This document shows positions 2,630 through 32,380 of a stretch of DNA of 64,000 nucleotides, in pieces. Position numbers and translations under genes: made by a program. The notes below the pieces were generated by a model, which worked only from the letters and a program-made list of their open reading frames with translations, searched no databases and was not told where the DNA came from. Where the stretch lies: IMG/VR virus record IMGVR_UViG_3300025423_000009, positions 32,001-96,000 of that record; one strand, written 5' to 3'. The DNA comes from a virus. Every line of letters begins with the position of its first letter. Position 1 is the first letter of the stretch.

Positions 2630-3451
2630 TTATTTATTCATTGGCTCGACGTCCGAGAGCCAGTGTTTCTTGTTTCCTTCCGTGACCAGAAAGTTAGGAC
2701 CACGCTTGACGATCTGAACGACTTCTCCGCCTTTCAGACGAATCGAGTCGCCAACATTGAAGACCTCGCCACGAACATATGATTCGCGAATCGTGGACAG
2801 CGGACTGAACTGAACGTCTTCGCGAAAAGTGGCAGATTCCTTCAGGCCCATGCGCTTACGAAGAAGATTGAAGAGTCCGATCGCATCCTCGAATCCGTGT
2901 GGCAAACCCTTGGAGAATGAGCGAAGGTCGTTGTCACGAACCGCCTGACGCATCTTGGAGGCCGACATGCCTTCCACTTCATCATCGGAATCCGGATCAC
3001 GATGACCGGCCGAGACCACCTCAATGCCGCCTGGAAAGTCGTAGTATCCATCATTCTTGAGTTTCTGGCCCTCGTACTTCTGCAGAAGCTTCGAGAATTC
3101 CGTGACTCGATCCTGACCAACCACCAAAACAAAGCGAGTGAAGCCATCCTGATAAGCCTTGCAAGCCACATCGAAGAATGTCTTGATAGACTTATCTTCA
3201 ATGATATTTCGAGCATGCTTGGGAAACATCTGCCGCATCACCTTGACCTTCTCGGAGTAGTGAAGAGGATTCTTTGTTGGATCTGTAGATTGAGAAGCGT
3301 AGATCTTATAGGTTCCACCAGCCGCTTCAGAAGCCACCGCGTCAATTAGCTTTTCATGACCTACAGTTGGAGGATTGAAACGTCCAAACGTGACCGTGAT
3401 CTCCTTGACCGTGGCCTCGACAAACTGTCGAAATGATTTTAAGTTTCCCAT
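2630..3451 (-). CDS. Cytidylyltransferase / NMN-adenylyltransferase-like (HxGH) nucleotidyltransferase
   Basis: TFGRFNPPTVGH, VVGQDRV and GMSASKMR motifs. Confidence 0.85.
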   Translation of the reverse strand: MGNLKSFRQFVEATVKEITVTFGRFNPPTVGHEKLIDAVASEAAGGTYKIYASQSTDPTKNPLHYSEKVKVMRQMFPKHARNIIEDKSIKTFFDVACKAYQDGFTRFVLVVGQDRVTEFSKLLQKYEGQKLKNDGYYDFPGGIEVVSAGHRDPDSDDEVEGMSASKMRQAVRDNDLRSFSKGLPHGFEDAIGLFNLLRKRMGLKESATFREDVQFSPLSTIRESYVRGEVFNVGDSIRLKGGEVVQIVKRGPNFLVTEGNKKHWLSDVEPMNK

Positions 3452-3464
3452 GATGTAGTAAGAT

Positions 3465-3680
3465 TTACGATAGCTTCAGATAGGGCCGTCGAGCTCGTCT
3501 CTCGGCACGCTCAACGAGGCGTCGCGAGTTGGCCCGTCGATACGGCAGGCCTTGCTCACGAAGTCCACGCCGACGCTTGACGTACTGATAGTTCAAGAGG
3601 CCGTCATCGTTCAGATACTCACCTGTGTAGTCTACCGATGTGAGATCCTTGAAGTTGACTTTGGATGAGTCTTGAGCCAT
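3465..3680 (-). CDS. Small basic hypothetical late protein
   Basis: ORF directly after late promoter 3692-3699. Confidence 0.55.
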   Translation of the reverse strand: MAQDSSKVNFKDLTSVDYTGEYLNDDGLLNYQYVKRRRGLREQGLPYRRANSRRLVERAERRARRPYLKLS

Positions 3681-3704
3681 GTCTATTTCGTTATTTATAC
3701 GAAT

Positions 3705-4918
3705 TCAACGTTGCCAGCCTTTAACCACGTCTGGACTGAAGTTAGCTTTGGAGAACTCCAGTCGATCGACCAGCTTGACGGTTCCGGCCTTGGTTCCGAC
3801 CACGTAGCCTTCCTGTCCGGTTCGTTCGTATCCATCCTTGGTCTTCAGAAACGTCGAGATTCCTCCAAGACGATTTAGCTGAGCAATCAATTCCTTCTTG
3901 GCTCCCACCAGTTGAGCCTGAAGCTTGAATGCCTTGACGATGTTTGACAGATTCTCTCTGGAGAAGAAGTCGAACGTGATCTGACGTCGTGCATTGACGG
4001 CCTGCTTACCCTTCTCGGTCTTCTTCGAAGCCACTTCCCGATCGAAGCGAGCGTTCATCCAGGCCACGAGCTCCGTGGCATGCTTCTGTGGATCATCGAT
4101 CTCTCGGCCCGCACGAACCTTCGAATTAGCAAAGGTCTCGATGGTCTGAGCCAGATCAGGATTGGATTGCAAGGCTTTTAGAATCGAGGACGGAATGGAC
4201 TTGAGAGTGGCCTCGGCTTCCTTGAGAGTCGCATCGACTTTACCGAGGTCTGCGGTGGATGATACCTTCTCCGTGCCGATACCCTTGAGATCCGCCGTGC
4301 GCCACCAGATCGAAGGAATTCGCTTAAACGATTTGGTGTCTACTCCCGGAGAAGCATGGAGTGCACTCAGCTTACCGGTATATGACGTATGAAACACCAC
4401 GCCGATCTTGGCGGCCATGATAGCCTTGGCTTCCGATGAATCGAGTGGAACCGCGTAAACGATCGTGTTTGGATGAAAGGTGACGTAGTCTCGACCTTGA
4501 ATCTTCTGACGCTTCAGAGTGTCGGACGTGAAGAGCAAATCTCCTTGAATGATTCCTCGAATGCCAAGCTTGGAGAACTCGATCAGAGCGACCTTCATCT
4601 TGTTATTGAGATCTCCGGCCTCGATGTGATCGTCGATGTCCTGTGGAGTCTTATACACCTCTGGAACTTTATTGAAGATCGACTTCTTGGCCACGAAGAA
4701 CTTACCATCGGCTGGATCGGTACCACAGAAAATTGCCGGCGCGCCATCCCACTTGACCGTGACGGAAGCCGTGGCTCCTTTTCCGGTCAGAGAGTCACGA
4801 ACCGCACGAAGAGCCTGAATGGCCGACTTGGCGCCCTCGATACCACCATAGAGGACCTGATCCTCCACATGAGTTAGATGTCCAGAACCTTCGAGAATGA
4901 ATTGCTTGAAAGTCATCA
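3705..4918 (-). CDS. ATP-dependent ligase/capping-fold nucleotidyltransferase (DUF6267-like)
   Basis: Motif I KWDG, III QGDLLF, IV EGYVV, V KLVD. Start approximate (MMTFKQFILE). Confidence 0.7.
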
Positions 4919-9453: not shown

Positions 9454-10116
9454 ATGCATATTTATCGATATCCCTCCCGTGAACTTTTATGTTCACTTCC
9501 CAAACTCCCATTCTTTTATGTCATTCAACATCGCGTATCAGGCAAACTTTATGCCGGTTATAAAGGCAAAAAGCCTGATCTTGGAACGTTTATGACGAAT
9601 GATGGATATATGACCTCATCTGGATCAATCAAATACATTCTTAAAACAGAAGGAATTGACAGTTTTATTATTCGACGAATTCGACTATTTGATACTTATC
9701 AAGATGCATTTAATCATGAAATATCTTTTCTAAGTCGCATTGATGCCATGCATAATCTATCATTCTTTAATAAAACAAATGGCCATCCTGAATATACACA
9801 GACCGGCAGAATCACCTCTCTTCAGGCTCGAAATAAACTTTCAAAGGCCGCTAAAGGCAAAAAACAATCTCCTGAATGGATTGAGAAAAGAACGAAAAAG
9901 ATTCGCGGTATTAAGAGAACGCCTGAGCAAAATGAAAAGAATCGGCAGGCTAAATTGGGAACATTACATTCAGATGAAACCAAGCGTAAGATGTCGGAAT
10001 CACATAGAGGCGTTAAACGAGCTCCCCTCACTGAGGCTCATAGAAAAGCCATCAGTGAAGGGAATCGTAAGCGACAGGCTAATAAAATAAAAACTGCAGG
10101 GCAGCCAAGCCAATAA
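9454..10116 (+). mobile_element. Free-standing GIY-YIG (Seg-like) homing endonuclease with NUMOD3 repeats
   Basis: FFYVIQH...LYAGY, YMTSS, NKTNG and repeated HSDETKRKMSE-type units; AT-rich; opposite strand to its neighbours. Confidence 0.85.
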
Positions 10117-11653
10117 AGAATGTCCAAGCGGCGTAAGTCGAAATAAGACGTACTAGTTCATCATCTTTCAGATTAGCACCGCCTGCAGAATACATATTCA
10201 ATCCACGCTGAAGCTTACGAAGGTTGGCCGTCTGCTTAGACTTACCTTCTTTAAGCACCTTGATCACTCTGAGACGTTCTTCATGAGACAATGAAAGACC
10301 GGACTGAAGCGGAATTTTATTACAGATCTGTTCCATGAACTCGAAAACCTCTTCATCACTGGGATTGATATCCACCAAAAAAGCTCTTGTTCTGATTGCT
10401 CCGTCTGGATCGAGCTTGTCCATGTTCAGGTTCGAGATGAAGATGACCTTGCCCGTGAACTCGAAGTATCGAGGAATCTCACCGGCATCCAGAATCTCTT
10501 CGTCCGAACGGTCGTCGTCCGGATCGACAACATTTGATCCGCGTTTATTCCACACCAGCTTACGAATCTTCTTGGTATCAGTCGCCGCCTTCAGAATGTT
10601 ACGCGCTTCCTGATCCTTCAGCGCGTCATCGGAATCATCGAAGAGAATCACGCCATCCTTGTAGCGAAAGAGCAGAGTGTACAGACCGGCAGGAGAAGCC
10701 GTACCCGTGTTCTTGAAATAACCGTCGCCGTCCTTGAGGCCGAGTTCATGCAGCACTTCCTCGACCGTATGAGTCTTACCAACGCCACCGCGACCGGCAA
10801 TGAAGAGAGCATTCGACGAACCTCCGATCGTCATTTTGATCAAATGGCGCAGATCGGAAAGCTGAGTCTTATATGGTAAGCGCTCGATCAGCTTCTCGGT
10901 CTTGGAATCCGTGGAGTATTGCTCATCGGAAGATCCTCGCGATACGGAGGCACCGGTGCATCCGATTCCGGCCAAGACTTTGGACTTGGCAATGATCAAT
11001 TCACGCACGTCTTCGGCCGTTCCTGCCCATGCAAATGACTGCCCCTTCTTGACGATCAGATTGGGAAATTCCTTGATCAAAGCCGCAAAGATAAGCTCAC
11101 CGGTCTTACGATACTGATCGTAGATCGATCCGGGACCATACTTCTTCAAGTTATTGTCCTTGATCATGGCCACGATGCCGTCATAGGCCGTCTCGGGATG
11201 AACGGACTCGAGGATCAGGCCAGAAGCGACTTTCATGTCCAGCGACTCGTTCAGATCCACCTTGGTCGGAGGAGTGAGAAAGTGACCGGACTTGGTGTCA
11301 CCGGTCAGCACGTCGGCGATGATCGGAAGAGTCTGTGCCAAAGAAAGATTCGAGTCGAACTTGATGTGATACGGCGTCTTGGAATCCAACCAGACGTCCG
11401 CGGACTCGACTCCGGTCAGGCCGATCGAGTTGGCCGCCGACCAATTGATGCGGATCGAGCGATTGCCATCCGGAATGAAGAAACGAATGCCATATCCATG
11501 ACCAGCCACTTCGCTCTTAAACTCTTCTGCTTCAGGAAAATGAAAGAGCTCGGCCTCGAGCTTGCGATGCAGGTACGACTTGATCAGCACGGCCGCCTTG
11601 TGTAGGCCAGCCGGTGAGATGCCTTCAGAGAGGTAGTTTTTGAATGATTTCAT
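10079..11653 (-). CDS. AAA+ ATPase with N-terminal extension, late, probably capsid-targeted
   Basis: Walker A GRGGVGKT, Walker B ILFDDSD, LKAATD, AIRTR; N-terminus MKSFKNYLSE. Confidence 0.85.
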   Translation of the reverse strand: MKSFKNYLSEGISPAGLHKAAVLIKSYLHRKLEAELFHFPEAEEFKSEVAGHGYGIRFFIPDGNRSIRINWSAANSIGLTGVESADVWLDSKTPYHIKFDSNLSLAQTLPIIADVLTGDTKSGHFLTPPTKVDLNESLDMKVASGLILESVHPETAYDGIVAMIKDNNLKKYGPGSIYDQYRKTGELIFAALIKEFPNLIVKKGQSFAWAGTAEDVRELIIAKSKVLAGIGCTGASVSRGSSDEQYSTDSKTEKLIERLPYKTQLSDLRHLIKMTIGGSSNALFIAGRGGVGKTHTVEEVLHELGLKDGDGYFKNTGTASPAGLYTLLFRYKDGVILFDDSDDALKDQEARNILKAATDTKKIRKLVWNKRGSNVVDPDDDRSDEEILDAGEIPRYFEFTGKVIFISNLNMDKLDPDGAIRTRAFLVDINPSDEEVFEFMEQICNKIPLQSGLSLSHEERLRVIKVLKEGKSKQTANLRKLQRGLNMYSAGGANLKDDELVRLISTYAAWTFFIGLAALQFLFY

Positions 11654-11684
11654 GTGTGCTGGCTGTATTTATACGACGTTCGGA

Positions 11685-11801
11685 TTATATCCAGCGCCTG
11701 GCCTGCTCACGATCTTCTTCCGTAGTTTGCATGGCAATAAACAGATCGTCAAGCGTCATGTCCGTAACAATGATCTCGGTCATGTTTAATACGCTACCCA
11801 T
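11685..11801 (-). CDS. Possible 38-aa ORF
   Basis: Read by hand; fills the gap between genes. Confidence 0.3.
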   Translation of the reverse strand: MGSVLNMTEIIVTDMTLDDLFIAMQTTEEDREQARRWI

Positions 11802-12088
11802 ATACGAACGAAACGAGGTTCAAAGTGACCAGAATATTGATCGTCTATGACCCATACTTCCTGTCGTTCAGTTGCCCAATATCCAGTGCAGACTGGAGTT
11901 ACAACTATAGGAGCATATTGATAATATGGTCGAGAACAATATGGTCTCGGATAGCAATCGCTATTATAGCCTCCGCCGACATAGACTGGTGCCGGTGATG
12001 CTACGATGCCGATTGAGAAGTTAAAATGACTATGGGCTGAAGCCGATAGAGCCATTAAAAGAGAAGTTAAAATAAAGTACTTTTTCAT
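11786..12088 (-). CDS. Secreted Pro/Tyr-rich protein (PXPV/YXWGXW-like)
   Basis: Signal peptide MKKYFILTSLLMALSASA, then FSIGIVASPAPVYV and a C-terminal GYW...GHF...W pattern. Confidence 0.6.
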   Translation of the reverse strand: MKKYFILTSLLMALSASAHSHFNFSIGIVASPAPVYVGGGYNSDCYPRPYCSRPYYQYAPIVVTPVCTGYWATERQEVWVIDDQYSGHFEPRFVRIWVAY

Positions 12089-12107
12089 ATTCATATTCAT
12101 ATTTATA

Positions 12108-12299
12108 TCAATCCCAAATTTCCACTCTTTCGAGAGCCGCGGCCGGATAGATTTGAACGGATCCATGTTCGGTCGAGGATTCGACGGCATATCCTTCCGG
12201 AGTCAGCGATGTTGAATAGGTTCCGACGACGATGCCTTTCCAGCATGATCCCTTGATTTTACGAACTGAATCGCCGAGTTTGAATTTTGGTTCTTGCAT
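12108..12299 (-). CDS. dfrB: Type II (R67/DfrB-like) dihydrofolate reductase, 63 aa
   Basis: FKLGDSVRK...[17 protein letters not shown]...[12 protein letters not shown] aligns without gaps to the R67 sequence as recalled; VQIY, K32 and W38 retained. Confidence 0.85.
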
Positions 12300-12303
12300 A
12301 GTT

Positions 12304-13698
12304 TTATACTTTGATGTTCGAGATTGATATGGCCTTGCGTCCCTTGTCCCAGGGCTTTGTTGTTTGAGATGTTGGACCGTCCGGCGTCGAGGATCCGATG
12401 ATGGTCTGACCCGAGTTGTTGACGTCATACAGTCGCATCTTGGATTTATCTACTCCGACAATGAAGCGCTTATTATTGGCCTTGTTATTGTATCGATTCT
12501 TGAGTTGCTTGATCAAGTATTGACCAAGCTTCTCGAGCTGCTCAGTCTCAGTCAACGAGAGCATGAAGTCCGCCGTGCCGGTCAGAGCGAATGAGTCCGC
12601 GATATCCGTCATCTCGGGATCAGATGAGTTCATGCCCATACGATTGACCTGCGTGGCCGTCCACAGAGGAACATTGAACTCGATGGCCAGACCACGAAGC
12701 TCCTCGGACACGGCCTTCACGAATGAATTTGTGTTCACGGCCGTCGACAGTCCCTTCACACGAGCCGACGAGCAGATGCCGATGTAGTCAACGAATATGA
12801 CTTCTGGAATGAAGTTTCTCTTCAATTTAAGCTCATTGAGGAGAGCTCGAAAGTGACCGGAATGTGCGGCCGCCGTAGGATACTCCTTGATGATCAGCTT
12901 GCCATGAGTCTTGGCCGCGATCTTTTTGACCTTGGACTCGAAGACATCGCGTGGTAACTCTTCTACCTGTTCCAGAGGAACGTCGAAAAGATTGGCATCG
13001 ATGCGTTCGGCGATGCGTTCTTCCGACATCTCGAGCGTGATGTAGAGCACATTCTTGCCCTGTGAGAGATATGATGCGGCCAGATGACAGAGTACCAAAC
13101 TTTTGCCCACATTCACACCAGCCATAACGATGTTCAGCGTCTTCTTGGGAACACCACCACGAGTGATCGCATTCAGCATCTCGATGTCGAATGGCATACG
13201 AGATTCCTTTTTGTGATAGTACTCGTATCGCTGAGGAGCATTCTCGACGTAGTCATGACCGACGTTGGTATCGAACGTGACCGACAATGCCTTCTGCAGA
13301 ATGTTGGGAATCATTCCCGGAGCCGTGTCCTTGCGTTTACCATCGATGATCGCGATCGATTCCATGACGGCCAGAAAGACCGCACGTTCCTGACACCACT
13401 TCTCGGTCTGATGAATCAGCCAATCGTGATCAACCTTCTCAGGTGTAATCAACTCTCGAATGACCTCGGCCGCATGATTTCGAGTCTCCAGCGATCCCTT
13501 GGTCGAAGATTCGAGCTCGATGGTCAATGCCGGAGAAGTCGGAATCTTGTTGTACTTGAGAATGAAGTCGAGGATGAGCTCGTAAGCCACTCGTTCTCCA
13601 CCCTCGAAGTACTCGGGCTTCACGTGAGGCATTGCCTTGCGACAGTATGCCTCATCGTTCACAAACGTCTTAAGAATCAGTCTCTGTAAGTTTTCCAT
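12304..13698 (-). CDS. 41: Replicative DNA helicase gp41
   Basis: MAGVNVGKS Walker [27 protein letters not shown]. Confidence 0.95.
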
Positions 13699-14041
13699 TA
13701 TATTCTTTCTTGCCAATCTTCGATCCGGGACTCAGCAGAATCTCTCTAAGAATGTCGCCGGCATGTTGATGAAACTTCAAATCATTCATGAACTTAGTGT
13801 TATGAAGGATCGTGTAGTTGAACGATAGCTTGGCCACTCCAAGCTCGGGATCTTCAGTGACTCGTACCCAGTCGTAACTGTACACGGTTCCCTTGAAGGG
13901 TCCGGTCAGTAATTCTATCACGGCATTGGTGTCTTGTACAGTCTGAAAGAAACCAATGCGATAGTCGACGTCCTCAATCGGATTCGTCTTCAGCCCCAGA
14001 GCTCTTGCGAGTAGCAAGCATCTCTTTGTGGCCCATTGCAT
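13670..14041 (-). CDS. 40: gp40-like head vertex assembly chaperone (start uncertain)
   Basis: Position between uvsX and 41; IELLTGPFKGTVYSY...LSFNY. Confidence 0.55.
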   Translation of the reverse strand: MQWATKRCLLLARALGLKTNPIEDVDYRIGFFQTVQDTNAVIELLTGPFKGTVYSYDWVRVTEDPELGVAKLSFNYTILHNTKFMNDLKFHQHAGDILREILLSPGSKIGKKEYNGKLTETDS

Positions 14042-15044
14042 AACGATTCTTAACATATTCTTTGAAGTCGGTCTTCTCGTAGATGGTGTTCCAAAATGAA
14101 TCATCGAAGGTCTGATCGGCACGAAGCTTCTTGCTCAGGTCCTTCTTGCTCTTTGGATCATGTGCGACATACCATCCAACTTGAGGCTTGAGCACGTATC
14201 CGCCGTCGACGGCAATATCAAGCAAACCGGAATTGCGTTCGATACCGCCTTCCCAAGACACGGAGATCGGAATCTTGGACTTCTCACGGACGAAGCGTGA
14301 CTTCTCGACGTTGATGTTGAAGTGATAGCCCTTCATCTCATCTCCGTCTTTGTCCTGAGAACGCCCGATGATCCATGCCGTATCGGCGGAATATACTATT
14401 CCAGTGCCACCCGATATGACAGGTTTCGAATACATCTCCTGTGTCATGTAGATGTGTGCGATTCCGATAAGAGGAATGTCTTTCAAAGATAGCATCGGAG
14501 TGACCATGCGGAACAAACCCTTGAGCGCCTTGGCTCGAGTCATGTCGGCTACGGACTTCTCATTGATCGCATCCTCGATTTCTTTCTTTGAGGCTAAATT
14601 GCCGATCGAGTCGATCATGATGATGACCTTGTCACCACGATTGATGTTTTGAAGCTGAGATACCAGATCGAACTTAAGCTCTTCGATATTCGTGATGGGA
14701 GTATGAAGAACACGCGAAGTGTCGATACCAAACGAGGTGAAGTAGGCCTGTGGAGATCCGAACTCGGAGTCATAGAACATGCACACGGCATCTGAATGCT
14801 GCTTCAAGTACGAAGCGACCATGAGCAGACCGAAGCTCGTCTTGAAGTGTTTGGATGGACCGGCCAGAACCGTGAGGCCAGAAGTGAGGCCTCCATCGAT
14901 AGAACCCGAAAGGGCCACGTTAATCATGGGCACTTCGGTTCGAGTGAACTCTTTCGTGCCGAATAGTTTCGAGTCGGCCATGACTTCGGCACCGTCGATC
15001 TTGGATGCTTTCTTGAGACGTTCGAGTAATGATGTTGATGACAT
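13974..15044 (-). CDS. uvsX: UvsX RecA-like recombinase
   Basis: AGPSKHFKT, FYDSEFG, IDSIGNLAS, SGGTG. Confidence 0.95.
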   Translation of the reverse strand: MSSTSLLERLKKASKIDGAEVMADSKLFGTKEFTRTEVPMINVALSGSIDGGLTSGLTVLAGPSKHFKTSFGLLMVASYLKQHSDAVCMFYDSEFGSPQAYFTSFGIDTSRVLHTPITNIEELKFDLVSQLQNINRGDKVIIMIDSIGNLASKKEIEDAINEKSVADMTRAKALKGLFRMVTPMLSLKDIPLIGIAHIYMTQEMYSKPVISGGTGIVYSADTAWIIGRSQDKDGDEMKGYHFNINVEKSRFVREKSKIPISVSWEGGIERNSGLLDIAVDGGYVLKPQVGWYVAHDPKSKKDLSKKLRADQTFDDSFWNTIYEKTDFKEYVKNRYAMGHKEMLATRKSSGAEDESD

Positions 15045-20511: not shown

Positions 20512-21720
20512 TTATTTAGTGGGGAACTTATCAGGCACTCCGATCCAGTCCTTGAAGTCAGAATGGGATTGAACAAGCTTGATGTAGGCCTGTGGAGTCA
20601 GATTGTTCGCCTTCAGCACCTCGTCGTAATAGAAGTTCTGTGTTGAATCGTTGAACGTCTTCACGAGGCCGAGCTTAAGCATAGGAAGCTGACGACCGTA
20701 CGGATGAATGATCTTCGTGGAACTGAATACTCGATCTCGATCGATCGTATTGTAGGCTTCTCCCAGGCGAACATACGATGTCACCCAACGAATGTAGTCA
20801 CAGCAAACATCTTCGCAATCGTAAGGCACACTGCCGGTATCTTTGCATGCCATCTCCATGACCGAGTCTAGAAAGTCTTCGGTCTTCATCTTCTTGAGGG
20901 GACGAGCCAGGTACGAGATACATTCGATCGCATTGGAACCATAGAAGAACATCGAGTCGCGAACGACGTATTGAGGATACCAGTCGGCGATGTCGGCCAC
21001 GATCGCCGCGTACTGAAAGTGATACTGTCTCAGGCCATTTCGCACGTTCCAGTCAAGCATGAAGCTTCCGATCTCTCGAAGAGTCTTCTTCTGACCCTTC
21101 ACGAGCCAATCGGCCAGATCTCGTGCCAGTCGTGGAGCATACTCACAAAGGAAGTAGTCTCCTCCACGTTTGTACTTCGATGAAGGCTTGGGAAACGCCG
21201 GAAACTGATAACCCACGGATGTGTAGAATGAGTTCGACTCATGACGGACCATCTCGCACATATCCTCGATCGTCTTGGCTCGATGAAGCTTGAAGAGGAG
21301 AGTGTTATGGTACCCCGAAGGTTTCTGAGCATAGTTGATGCCAGAACCACACACTCGATGAAGGATGAAGATGTAGAGCCATTCGGCCAGAGAGAAGTCA
21401 TCATGCTTTCCAATCCAGTCATGAGCCACTTGACTCCTCTGCTCGGTGATCATTCCGGCTTGCATCTTCTTCCAGTACGGATGACGATCGGTCCATCCAT
21501 AGAAGACGTCATTGACGATCTGAGAGAATCCGGCATACTTACGCTCGACGACGTCGTACAGTTCGACGTGTTCCATGAGATCATCACCCATCTTCGATTC
21601 TCGATGAGTCATCATTCCATATGGAGGCAGAGAGGAGACATTGCACTTGGTCTGTTGCTCTCGAGCCAGATCGTAATACCGCAGAAAGTCCTGATAGTAT
21701 GGAGTCGCTTCAATTTTCAT
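20512..21720 (-). CDS. aGPT-Pplase / 5-hmU-kinase-helical (HhH-like) DNA base-modification protein, paralogue B
   Basis: LYDVVER, FILHRVCGS, YGSNAIECISYL and DCEDVCCDYIRW. Confidence 0.6.
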   Translation of the reverse strand: MKIEATPYYQDFLRYYDLAREQQTKCNVSSLPPYGMMTHRESKMGDDLMEHVELYDVVERKYAGFSQIVNDVFYGWTDRHPYWKKMQAGMITEQRSQVAHDWIGKHDDFSLAEWLYIFILHRVCGSGINYAQKPSGYHNTLLFKLHRAKTIEDMCEMVRHESNSFYTSVGYQFPAFPKPSSKYKRGGDYFLCEYAPRLARDLADWLVKGQKKTLREIGSFMLDWNVRNGLRQYHFQYAAIVADIADWYPQYVVRDSMFFYGSNAIECISYLARPLKKMKTEDFLDSVMEMACKDTGSVPYDCEDVCCDYIRWVTSYVRLGEAYNTIDRDRVFSSTKIIHPYGRQLPMLKLGLVKTFNDSTQNFYYDEVLKANNLTPQAYIKLVQSHSDFKDWIGVPDKFPTK

Positions 21721-22168
21721 AATATTGAATCCAATCGTATTCAATTCCGGCTTCCGCAAAGAGTTCTTTAGTAAAGTCACATGACTTAATCCATTGCTCG
21801 GCCACGATCTGTCGTGGAACGACCACGCGTTTAATACCAACCTGAATGATTCCCTTGGCACATTCAGAGCAAATTGGTAAGCCAGTGGCATAGAGAGTTG
21901 CTCCTTTCAGAGAAACACCATGTTCGACCGCGTTGTAGATCGCATTCATCTCGCCATGAACAATATACTTGTATTTGACTTCACGAACATTTAGACGATC
22001 TGGATTATCCTCAATTCCACTAGGAAAGCCATTGTAGCCAGTAGACAAAATCTTTCGATCTCGAACAACAACCGCTCCAATACGAGTCGATGGATCTTTG
22101 GACCATGATGCGACTTGTCGAGCCATGTCCAAAAATCTTATGTCCCATTTGTCGACTTCAGTTTGCAT
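21710..22168 (-). CDS. cd: dCMP deaminase
   Basis: SKDPSTRIGA, TGYNG, HGEMNA, PICSECAK. Confidence 0.92.
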   Translation of the reverse strand: MQTEVDKWDIRFLDMARQVASWSKDPSTRIGAVVVRDRKILSTGYNGFPSGIEDNPDRLNVREVKYKYIVHGEMNAIYNAVEHGVSLKGATLYATGLPICSECAKGIIQVGIKRVVVPRQIVAEQWIKSCDFTKELFAEAGIEYDWIQYYEN

Positions 22169-22904
22169 AGGGGCGTACTTTAGGATAGAACTTACGATAT
22201 TCTTCCTTACTTATCGAGTGCTGTCCAGTCAGATCGAAATGATCGATCAGATAGAACTGACTCGAATAGACATGTAAATTTCCAACGTTCCAGACGATGT
22301 GACCCAGATCGACGTTGGATTCCGTCAAACGATTGTAGTCATTCAGAAGCTTCTTCAATACATGAAGCTGCCAGGCGTAGTCGTTACGATATCCAGCCCA
22401 GGCATCGTTGCTTCGCATCGAGACGATGGCATGCATGGAATTCTCACGAATGAAGTACTGAACCGTGTTCGTGCAGATGAAATCCGACATGCCGTCCTTA
22501 CAGAAGTCTTCATGCATGGAAGGACGCGTGTAGATCATGATCGCACGACGTGAATTCTTATTGCAGATGAGTTCTCTCAGGCATCCGTCATATTGACTAC
22601 CATTCTCCTTCGACCAGATGCACCATCCATAGTTCGAGTTGATCAATCCATTGGGCGTCGCGATCTTCTTCCAGATCTCTGGAACCTTGGCGGGAATGTC
22701 ATTCACGTTTAGTGACTTTGACTCATACCATTGAAGCTCACGCTTCACGTAGTCGTCATTCACGGAGCCAAAGATCGTCGGCTCATCGGCCATGAATTGA
22801 ACTCCGATGATCTCGACGGTCAGAGCTCCGGTCTTGTCGATCGTGAAGTTCTCGTTCCTCAAAAGATCCGAGAACTCTTTGCGAATGTCATTGATGTTCC
22901 GCAT
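22158..22904 (-). CDS. 42: dCMP hydroxymethylase (T4 gp42 orthologue)
   Basis: DKTG..T.EIIG, RELQWY, INSNYGW, SRRAIMIYTRPSM, DFICTN, MRSND and RNDYAW; carries the Asp at the T4 D179 position that specifies dCMP. Confidence 0.92.
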   Translation of the reverse strand: MRNINDIRKEFSDLLRNENFTIDKTGALTVEIIGVQFMADEPTIFGSVNDDYVKRELQWYESKSLNVNDIPAKVPEIWKKIATPNGLINSNYGWCIWSKENGSQYDGCLRELICNKNSRRAIMIYTRPSMHEDFCKDGMSDFICTNTVQYFIRENSMHAIVSMRSNDAWAGYRNDYAWQLHVLKKLLNDYNRLTESNVDLGHIVWNVGNLHVYSSQFYLIDHFDLTGQHSISKEEYRKFYPKVRPYAN

Positions 22905-31966: not shown

Positions 31967-32380
31967 TTATTTTTCGTATGCCTTCGAAATGATTCCATGA
32001 TTGTTGGAATGATCAGGCGCTTTCCATCCCGGCTCTTTTATCAAATCCGGAAGTCCCCAAGGATTCGGACGAGACGCCTTAATGCCAACCTTCTTGTTCA
32101 TGTTGGCGCGCAGAACTTCTTCCCAAGCTTCCTGAGCGTCGACGTCGTATGCATCCAGAGTGCCGATGGCTACGACGCAGAGATCGATCAGCGCATCAAC
32201 GATTTCTTCGGCATCACCGGCCTCAACGGCCTTCATTCCCTCATTGAGTTCCTCTTGCAAAAAGCGAAAGCGAAAGCTGAGGTACTCGCGCAGATGTTCC
32301 TTCGATAGCGTGAGAGTCTTGGTCTTCACGCCGTAATGCTTATGCATATCCTTGATGTCTTGATTCCAGTTTAAGCTCAT
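31967..32380 (-). CDS. MazG-like / PRA-PH dNTP pyrophosphatase
   Basis: LQEELNE...EIVDALIDL...ANM.K...DLIKEPGW..P. Confidence 0.85.
   Translation of the reverse strand: MSLNWNQDIKDMHKHYGVKTKTLTLSKEHLREYLSFRFRFLQEELNEGMKAVEAGDAEEIVDALIDLCVVAIGTLDAYDVDAQEAWEEVLRANMNKKVGIKASRPNPWGLPDLIKEPGWKAPDHSNNHGIISKAYEK

Follow-up and report, generated by a model that had tools for sequence, protein, structure and literature searches.

A DfrB-family gene and the thymidylate synthase gene thyX are alternative occupants of one slot behind the helicase gene of freshwater T4-like phages

Introduction

Why would a T4-like phage carry a gene of the DfrB family? DfrB enzymes, the type B or R67-type dihydrofolate reductases (DHFRs), make their carriers very highly resistant to trimethoprim, but where they come from and what they do in nature is still a matter of debate. 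The question is raised by an open reading frame (ORF) of 63 amino acids (aa) at positions 12108 to 12299, minus strand, of a 64,000-nucleotide stretch of viral DNA (the window), which covers positions 32,001 to 96,000 of IMG/VR record IMGVR_UViG_3300025423_000009. The record measures 117,947 bp and its ends overlap exactly over 127 bp, so the assembly is probably complete and circularly closed. It represents a T4-like phage with distant DNA similarity to Stenotrophomonas phage DLP6 and to T4-like cyanophages. The original prediction read the ORF as a phage DfrB that is coupled to the replicative helicase gp41 and serves folate recycling.

Phage-borne DfrBs have already been published, and the present gene is one more example. 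Four contigs of a Han River virome carry DfrB2-like ORFs (67% identity) whose function was left open (PMC7265639), and homologues from a Pseudomonas phage (DfrB-H3) and a Vibrio phage (DfrB-H4) have been characterised, the latter conferring resistance in E. coli with a trimethoprim minimum inhibitory concentration of up to 600 µg/ml (PMC9835603). Eight dfrB candidates were counted in lytic phages (PMC12466917). A further study gathered 20 viral homologues, validated three of the four that fall in its cluster II, and predicted DfrB1-like tetramers with high confidence for clusters I and II; the VQIY motif was exclusive to cluster I, the cluster of the clinical DfrBs, and catalytic DfrBs were proposed to serve thymidine monophosphate (dTMP) production in viruses with ThyA and without FolA (PMC12486381).

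The 63-aa ORF is a DfrB-family gene

The junction between the helicase gene and the ORF comprises three features:

12108–12299, minus strand: dfrB, homologue of the DfrB (R67-type, type B) dihydrofolate reductases, 63 aa (PF06442, R67 chains of the PDB, AlphaFold2/Foldseek)
12300–12303, minus strand: spacer AACT between the gp41 TAA and the dfrB ATG (sequence read)
12304–13716, minus strand: gp41-like DnaB-family replicative helicase (PF03796, 70.6 bits; DNA match to T4-like primase-helicase genes)

Reading the sequence directly, we found the dfrB ATG at 12299, separated by 4 nt from the gp41-like stop codon (TAA, 12304–12306), as originally predicted. The gp41 gene itself probably starts at the ATG at 13698 rather than at the TTG at 13716, since its relatives begin ME(A/S)NLQKL. 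The ORF product matched Pfam PF06442 (DHFR_2) with 83.1 bits (E 1.2e-23, cut-off 25) over profile positions 23–77 of 78, and a six-frame search of the genome recovered the family with 82.1 bits. With phmmer, ORF residues 4–59 aligned without gaps to the R67 chains 1vie, 2rk1 and 6ny0 (E 5e-19). A chance ORF was ruled out by these E-values, which are far beyond chance. Identity to the R67 core amounted to 36 of 55 positions (65%, counted from the phmmer alignment), and tblastn gave 63.6% to DfrB1, 66.7% to DfrB4 and 70.4% to DfrB2, DfrB3 and DfrB10, in agreement with the gapless alignment and the two-thirds identity that had been estimated by eye.

ORF numbering is converted to that of R67, used from here on, by adding 18 (K14=K32, W20=W38, T27=W45, E44=H62, H45=P63, S47=S65), and V48-Q49-I50-Y51 correspond to V66–Y69. 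In this alignment the pore-lining residues K32, S65, V66, Q67, I68 and Y69 are all present. Regarding the interfaces of R67, W38 (dimer–dimer) is kept, H62 (dimer–dimer) is replaced by E and W45 (monomer–monomer) by T, so that the phage copy has T45, E62 and H63 where DfrB1 has W45, H62 and P63. The calls for K32, W38, VQIY, W45 and H62, including the histidine shifted by one position, had been made correctly in the original prediction. An AlphaFold2 monomer model built from 66 homologues reached a predicted local distance difference test score of 92.4 and contains the five strands of an SH3-like beta-barrel. The first seven Foldseek matches to it were all R67 structures (template modelling score, TM, 0.84–0.96; root mean square deviation 0.5–1.4 Å), the best being 2gqv, 1vie and 2rk1 (TM 0.89–0.96), with no other strong matches. 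The phage protein thus shares Pfam family, five-strand fold and a gapless alignment with R67/DfrB1 and with the integron-borne DfrB2, DfrB3, DfrB4 and DfrB10; unlike the integron-borne genes, its own lies in a phage genome without integron or plasmid context.

At the level of sequence, we regard the ORF as confirmed to be a genuine DfrB-family gene of a T4-like phage, and it is quite likely, judging from its residues and its model, that it encodes a functional DfrB from the group with the VQIY motif, to which the clinical enzymes belong as well. Its product lacks the disordered N-terminus of about 20 residues found in DfrB1. It scored 93.9 bits against NCBIfam NF000331, the rule for naming DfrB among antimicrobial resistance genes, whose curated cut-off is 137; the absence of the N-terminal third of the 78-position profile accounts for the shortfall, together with the 64–70% identity. 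By this score, the phage gene should not be named a DfrB resistance allele.

We also considered an assembly chimera at the gp41–dfrB junction, which is excluded by bridging contigs: contigs from four independent freshwater runs span it, and the arrangement is therefore real and recurrent. Inside dfrB these contigs differ by two synonymous changes and one R13C. All but one of the listed runs holding the 2-kb stretch around dfrB are freshwater or aquatic metagenomes, released 2012–2025 (the exception is labelled 'metagenome'), and 14 of these runs carry no mark as a possible source of this DNA. No RNA run was among those listed, a result without bearing on expression. Homologues occur in 26 GenBank phage records, several of them annotated as R67 DHFR, in at least 175 IMG/VR stretches and in at least 776 metagenome protein clusters, the closest metagenome homologues (P0003 and P0012) being 88–89% identical.

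The slot behind gp41 holds DfrB or ThyX

Beyond gp41, the locus and its counterparts in sister contigs contain the following features:

13974–15044, minus strand: UvsX recombinase, conserved upstream flank (PF00154; PF21134, T4_UVSX_C)
11784–12303, minus strand: variable cassette slot, from gp41 to the AAA-ATPase module (DNA homology break)
11786–12100, minus strand: small signal-peptide protein of about 100–104 aa (start at 12100, 12094 or 12088), second gene of the slot
10079–11653, minus strand: AAA-ATPase-like protein of 524 aa, conserved downstream flank (phrog_1250; PF13191 at 28 bits, below its cut-off)
L084, 4411–5070; L085, 4400–5059; L086, 4429–5094; L087, 4429–5094: ThyX genes of sister contigs

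The order uvsX, orf150, gp41, slot and AAA-ATPase, where orf150 is a 150-aa ORF on the minus strand between uvsX and gp41, is shared by eight contigs with a gp41 that is 78–87% identical. DNA homology between the window and these sister contigs ends at the gp41 stop (12300–12303) and returns near 11770–11783, and the AAA-ATPase-like protein is 78–86% identical in them. Slot content was read in seven, because the eighth (L091) ends inside or just after gp41. In four of them (L084 to L087) the slot holds ThyX, of 219–221 aa, recognised by PF02511 with 111–114 bits in three records and by TIGR02170 with 99.8 bits (cut-off 87.9) in L086. In L084, L086 and L087 this gene starts 3–18 nt past the gp41 stop, a junction similarly tight to that of dfrB, and behind it, in L086 and L087, comes a signal-peptide protein of 111 aa that has a T4-type late promoter box (TATAAATA) to itself, as found behind dfrB in the window. 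L085 has a 360-aa ORF (3321–4403) between gp41 and ThyX. In the three remaining contigs (L088, L089 and L090) the slot contains a 58-aa ORF only, and neither DfrB nor ThyX. DfrB and FolA were absent from all five sister records searched, and a gp42-like gene was kept in the four that are large enough.

In a gp41 tree the nine sequences formed one clade (100/100) whose inner branching was not resolved. DfrB and ThyX alternate in one slot, and judging from the tree either of them may have replaced the other. ThyX is a flavin-dependent thymidylate synthase, unrelated in sequence to DfrB; it makes dTMP itself and yields tetrahydrofolate (THF), so it needs no DHFR and would relieve the same thymidylate/folate bottleneck. 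Their alternation at one locus is specific, though circumstantial, evidence that the phage DfrB acts in the thymidylate/folate cycle. We found no description of such an alternation in the available portions of the published work on phage DfrBs (PMC9835603, PMC12486381, PMC7265639). The coupling to the helicase that had been proposed for DfrB turned out to be positional only, given a slot that is variable and holds ThyX or neither of the two in sister phages. Among the best 80 of the 175 IMG/VR DfrB loci, the sole other one with gp41 next to DfrB is a 9.4-kb contig of essentially the same phage, and we rejected a functional coupling.

The locus also seems to have been exchanged as a block. The second contig of the phage (L003), which comes from another sample, is 96–100% identical to the window from about 14250 to 11250 and only 63–77% identical in the flanks. 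The shared block comprises orf150, gp41, dfrB, the secreted-protein gene and the start of the AAA gene, and the diverged flanks hold uvsX and the distal AAA gene; the gp41–dfrB block therefore moves between phage genotypes by recombination, and from its sequence the L003 block looks like a recent exchange of this kind. The freshwater runs X7 and X13 have a short contig in which the start of the AAA-ATPase gene (11653) is followed, after about 10 other letters, directly by the sequence at the end of dfrB (12095–12118), which seems to be a population variant that keeps dfrB without the small secreted-protein gene.

Regarding the other genes around the slot, the small signal-peptide protein had no Pfam or PHROG match. 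We dropped an overlapping 134-aa reading from 12190 and prefer an internal start, at 12100 or later, which lies behind the late promoter box. Just past the AAA-ATPase gene, on the opposite strand, there is a homing-endonuclease-like ORF of 220 aa (9454–10116, plus strand; NUMOD3 motif, phrog_314). Some sister contigs have further cargo in the slot: the 360-aa ORF of L085 carries a CxxxCxxC motif and looks radical-SAM-like by eye, and a 241-aa ORF that follows ThyX in L084 (5067–5792) has a GHMP-kinase-like GAGGGG motif.

The phage lacks FolA-type dihydrofolate reductases and thymidylate synthases

The nucleotide genes that bear on the role of dfrB lie about 10 kb away from it:

22158–22904, minus strand: T4 gp42-type deoxycytidine monophosphate (dCMP) hydroxymethylase (PDB 1b5e/1b49, 307.9 bits; RNDYAWQ motif)
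21710–22168, minus strand: dCMP deaminase, which produces deoxyuridine monophosphate (dUMP) (PF00383, 77 bits; phrog_174)

A six-frame search of the 117,947-bp genome returned no candidate for a DHFR of the FolA/Frd type (PF00186), a family that matched in 10 control genomes. ThyX (PF02511) was likewise absent from the six-frame search, and tblastn with the sister-phage ThyX gave noise only. The sole PF00303 match in the genome, at 22158–22904 (47.9 bits in the genome search, 49 bits as a protein), could have been a ThyA. We excluded this identity, because the protein scores 307.9 bits against the gp42 structures and at most 43 against true thymidylate synthases, and because its RNDYAWQ motif carries the Asp that specifies dCMP. 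So the genome, which the original prediction had proposed to check for frd and td, has no PF00186 gene and no true thymidylate synthase anywhere in its 118 kb. The dCMP deaminase gene adjoins the gp42-type gene, and directly 3' of it lies a 459-aa ORF (20512–21891, minus strand) with no Pfam, PHROG or NCBIfam match.

The dUMP made by the deaminase is the substrate of thymidylate synthase. The gp42 enzyme uses methylene-THF and returns THF; only ThyA oxidises the cofactor to dihydrofolate. From this inventory, the phage therefore makes dUMP and hydroxymethyl-dCMP (hm-dCMP), and neither dTMP nor dihydrofolate of its own. T4 combines a FolA-type Frd with the thymidylate synthase Td and hm-dCMP synthesis by gp42. 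Frd, an early enzyme that regenerates THF in a phage that also makes hm-dCMP, would do the same job as the one proposed here for DfrB; it is unrelated in fold and sequence, and T4 pairs it with its own Td, whereas the present phage has neither.

One could argue that DfrB reduces another pterin or folate-like substrate, or serves DNA hypermodification, instead of the thymidylate cycle. Promiscuity of the DfrB pore has been described (PMC9835603), and this phage has a cluster centred on gp42 with the dCMP deaminase. We consider this very unlikely, given the distance between dfrB and that cluster, the absence of dfrB from sister phages that keep the gp42-like gene, and the lack of a gp42-like match in all 44 other DfrB-bearing viral records.

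Those records, of at least 25 kb each, were searched for FolA (0 of 44), ThyA (2) and ThyX (2); among the eight that are at least 90% complete, one has ThyA and none has ThyX or FolA. Their PF00303 matches were two true ThyA (>350 bits), with no gp42-like protein. The census covers DfrB-bearing records alone, with no base rate from DfrB-free phage contigs, so that its counts support no claim of depletion or enrichment; they would fit a DfrB that takes the place of FolA. In environmental phages, it seems to be usual for a genome with DfrB to encode no thymidylate synthase.

Expression signals around dfrB

Late promoter boxes were located as matches to TATAAATA, of which the window has 10 on the minus strand and none on the plus strand, with about one expected per strand. 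They stand at:

56, 3699, 11673, 12107, 36157, 38683, 53607, 58413, 60203 and 60916, minus strand: TATAAATA boxes
12100–12107, minus strand: TATAAATA late promoter box that abuts the dfrB stop codon and heads the small secreted-protein gene, not dfrB
11666–11673, minus strand: a further TATAAATA late promoter box, which heads the AAA-ATPase gene

No late promoter box precedes dfrB. A scan for sigma-70 promoters and terminators from uvsX to the AAA gene gave no excess over shuffled sequences, the gp41–dfrB interval included, and no Shine-Dalgarno motif was found in the 30 nt upstream of the dfrB ATG. With no late box before it, one directly after it, and no promoter or terminator between it and gp41, dfrB is the last gene of the gp41 unit. 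By analogy with T4, this unit would be expressed early or in the middle of infection, in the replication phase, and the 4-nt gap, together with the absent promoter and Shine-Dalgarno motif, suggests that dfrB is probably translated by re-initiation after gp41 termination. The distribution of the boxes is also a usable map of the phage's late transcription units.

Residue states in viral and bacterial DfrBs

To place the T45 and E62 substitutions in context, we counted residues in the best 80 of the 175 IMG/VR matches to this query, a sample biased toward its look-alikes. K32, W38, S65 and V66–Y69 were invariant in 80/80, and likewise in 66 metagenome homologues. The viral set was also invariant at G35, G40, G44, Y46, residues 50–52 and 54–59, and GSVQIYP (64–70), with E53 in 78/80. 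T45 and E62 were each found in 74/80, and position 63 was K in 54, R in 8 and H in 4. By contrast, 76 DfrB relatives from bacterial species genomes, mostly Burkholderiales, Sphingomonadales and Rhizobiales, had W45 in 60, H62 in 59 and P63 in 61, the same majority states as in DfrB1, DfrB2 and DfrB4. T45 and E62, the changes noticed in the original prediction, are therefore the norm among the sampled viral copies and mark a viral subtype, not a quirk of one gene.

Side by side with this census, 113 stretches of GTDB species genomes (L169–L248) encode DfrB relatives that are 63–77% identical to the phage DfrB. Their hosts are overwhelmingly freshwater and soil Burkholderiales (Polaromonas, Rhodoferax, Variovorax, Ramlibacter, Caldimonas and Polynucleobacter), plus Sphingomonadales and Rhizobiales. 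Most of these copies have W45, H62 and P63. The few that show T45 or E62 could stem from prophages, or from phage contigs that ended up in metagenome-assembled genomes by binning.

Published phage homologues share the DfrB domain in Caudoviricetes genomes without FolA, and the proposed role of reducing dihydrofolate for dTMP. A protein of Vibrio phage 1.030.O, 71% identical to the phage DfrB core, has Y45, E62 and K63 and a DNA methylase gene about 2 kb away. We infer that it is DfrB-H4, since it fits the published description of that gene with a DNA methylase gene at this distance (PMC9835603). E62 is thus not special to the present gene, as it also occurs in the inferred counterpart of a resistance-conferring enzyme. 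The Vibrio protein is a multidomain protein of 218 aa, in contrast to the bare 63-aa domain found here. Sinorhizobium phage phiM9, of the T4 superfamily, encodes a 67-aa homologue (Sm_phiM9_002, 69% identical, annotated hypothetical, F45) on the same strand as gp41 and downstream of it, four genes (about 2.3 kb) away. E62 and a basic residue at position 63 are common to the three proteins. In the characterised enzymes, W45 can be replaced without loss of structure or function, and it is not conserved in active distant homologues (PMC9835603). We hypothesise that E62 may remove the pH-dependent dissociation of the tetramer that H62 causes in R67.

These residues bear on a further possibility, namely that the phage retains the SH3-like DfrB domain for a task other than catalysis, such as binding nucleotides or proteins or multimerising at the replisome, with DHFR activity absent or incidental. 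DfrB-domain homologues of clusters III–V, six of them in Streptomyces phages that have ThyX, gave neither DfrB1-like tetramers nor resistance, and nucleotide binding was proposed as an ancestral role (PMC12486381). Such a job would also suit a gene located in the replication module behind gp41, in a phage that encodes no dihydrofolate-producing enzyme. Against it stand the retention of VQIY, K32, S65 and W38, all invariant in the viral sample, and the restriction of VQIY to the predicted-tetrameric cluster I (PMC12486381). Moreover, the alternative cargo found in this position, a thymidylate synthase, suggests a link to folate and thymidylate metabolism and not to the replisome. A non-catalytic function is therefore unlikely.

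A relative on a bacterial plasmid is an unnamed 67-aa DfrB of the Pseudomonas aeruginosa plasmid p1160-VIM, 75.9% identical to the phage DfrB. This gene (L164; NZ_MF144194.1, 44515–44718) adjoins aadA1 and an IS110-family element. Its product has the viral-type residues K23, K25, S47, T61, E62, R63 and A71 and keeps W45, and it is 68–73% identical to the viral set versus 57–58% to DfrB1, DfrB2 and DfrB4. The gene may connect the environmental or viral subtype with a clinical plasmid.

Is the phage gene, then, an antifolate-resistance device, which would sustain phage replication in hosts whose FolA is blocked by trimethoprim or by antifolates of natural origin, or is it a resistance gene on its way to bacteria? 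The p1160-VIM gene, with its viral-type E62, S47, T61 and A71 and its resistance-gene and insertion-element neighbours, speaks for this. The gene set of the phage, however, is that of a lytic T4-like phage, the stretches read showed no integrase or integron context, and the listed runs that hold the dfrB stretch are freshwater or aquatic, apart from the one plain 'metagenome'. Trimethoprim, in turn, is synthetic, the clinical alleles are only 64–70% identical, and the alternative to dfrB in the slot, ThyX, is not a resistance gene. We consider a resistance function quite improbable. That phages are a reservoir of dfrB, as the original prediction argued, had already been published; the clinical alleles do not stem directly from the copy described here, given its 64–70% identity to DfrB1–4 and DfrB10 and its score of 93.9 instead of 137 bits with NF000331.

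Discussion

The most likely role of the phage DfrB is to recycle the dihydrofolate made by host ThyA, because the phage has no thymidylate synthase or FolA of its own and yet makes dUMP and hm-dCMP; folate recycling, as first proposed, is thus the best reading. From what is known of the family, four 63-residue SH3-like protomers would form a homotetramer with one central pore, where K32, S65, V66, Q67, I68 and Y69 would line the site at which reduced nicotinamide adenine dinucleotide phosphate (NADPH) reduces dihydrofolate to THF, and the enzyme would be intrinsically insensitive to trimethoprim. Expressed early as the last gene of the gp41 unit, probably via re-initiation, it would act on the dihydrofolate released by host ThyA and keep the THF pool high for the synthesis of dTMP and hm-dCMP during phage DNA replication. 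The sister phages with ThyX at the same position would have found another solution to the same problem. On sequence and structural modelling, we think it probable that the phage DfrB is an active, trimethoprim-insensitive DHFR that supports a folate cycle based on host ThyA.

Several observations weigh against this. The phage itself makes no dihydrofolate, as gp42 returns THF, so its need for a DHFR rests on the host having ThyA and not ThyX. Three sister contigs do without either cassette, which means that the function is dispensable. ThyA is present in just two of the 44 other DfrB-bearing records, and the link to thymidylate is therefore indirect in most of these phages. Regarding the protein, W45 and H62, both of them interface residues in R67, are substituted in the phage sequence, and the NCBI naming cut-off is missed by its score. 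The N-terminus of about 20 residues that it lacks was essential to express well-folded DfrB1, though activity survived its removal (PMC9835603).

We tentatively propose, at rather less than even chances, two linked readings: that viral DfrBs form an interface subtype of their own, and that DfrB and ThyX are interchangeable cassettes at a hot spot behind gp41. If the first is true (T45, E62 and a basic residue 63), the tetramer would not depend on the titratable His62 and would hence be independent of pH. If the second is true, a phage without its own thymidylate synthase would gain fitness by speeding the host ThyA/DHFR cycle. If both hold, the large freshwater dfrB pool, whose flanks were not assignable in river metagenomes (PMC10432401), would be substantially phage-borne and selected for nucleotide supply, not for drug resistance.

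The ThyA linkage that is stressed in the literature (PMC12486381) is not general: the apparently complete genome studied here has no thymidylate synthase, and neither do seven of the eight near-complete DfrB-bearing viral genomes. By the T45/E62 signature, most of the sampled viral copies stand apart from the majority of bacterial ones as well as from DfrB1, DfrB2 and DfrB4, and surveys of environmental resistomes could use it to help distinguish phage-borne dfrB reads from resistance genes of bacteria. As regards the risk of resistance, the clinical alleles are not closely related to this copy. Finally, within a tight clade of freshwater T4-like phages, one slot holds either a minimal DfrB or ThyX. 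This clean natural comparison supports a role of the phage DfrB in thymidylate and folate supply and argues against its selection by the drug.

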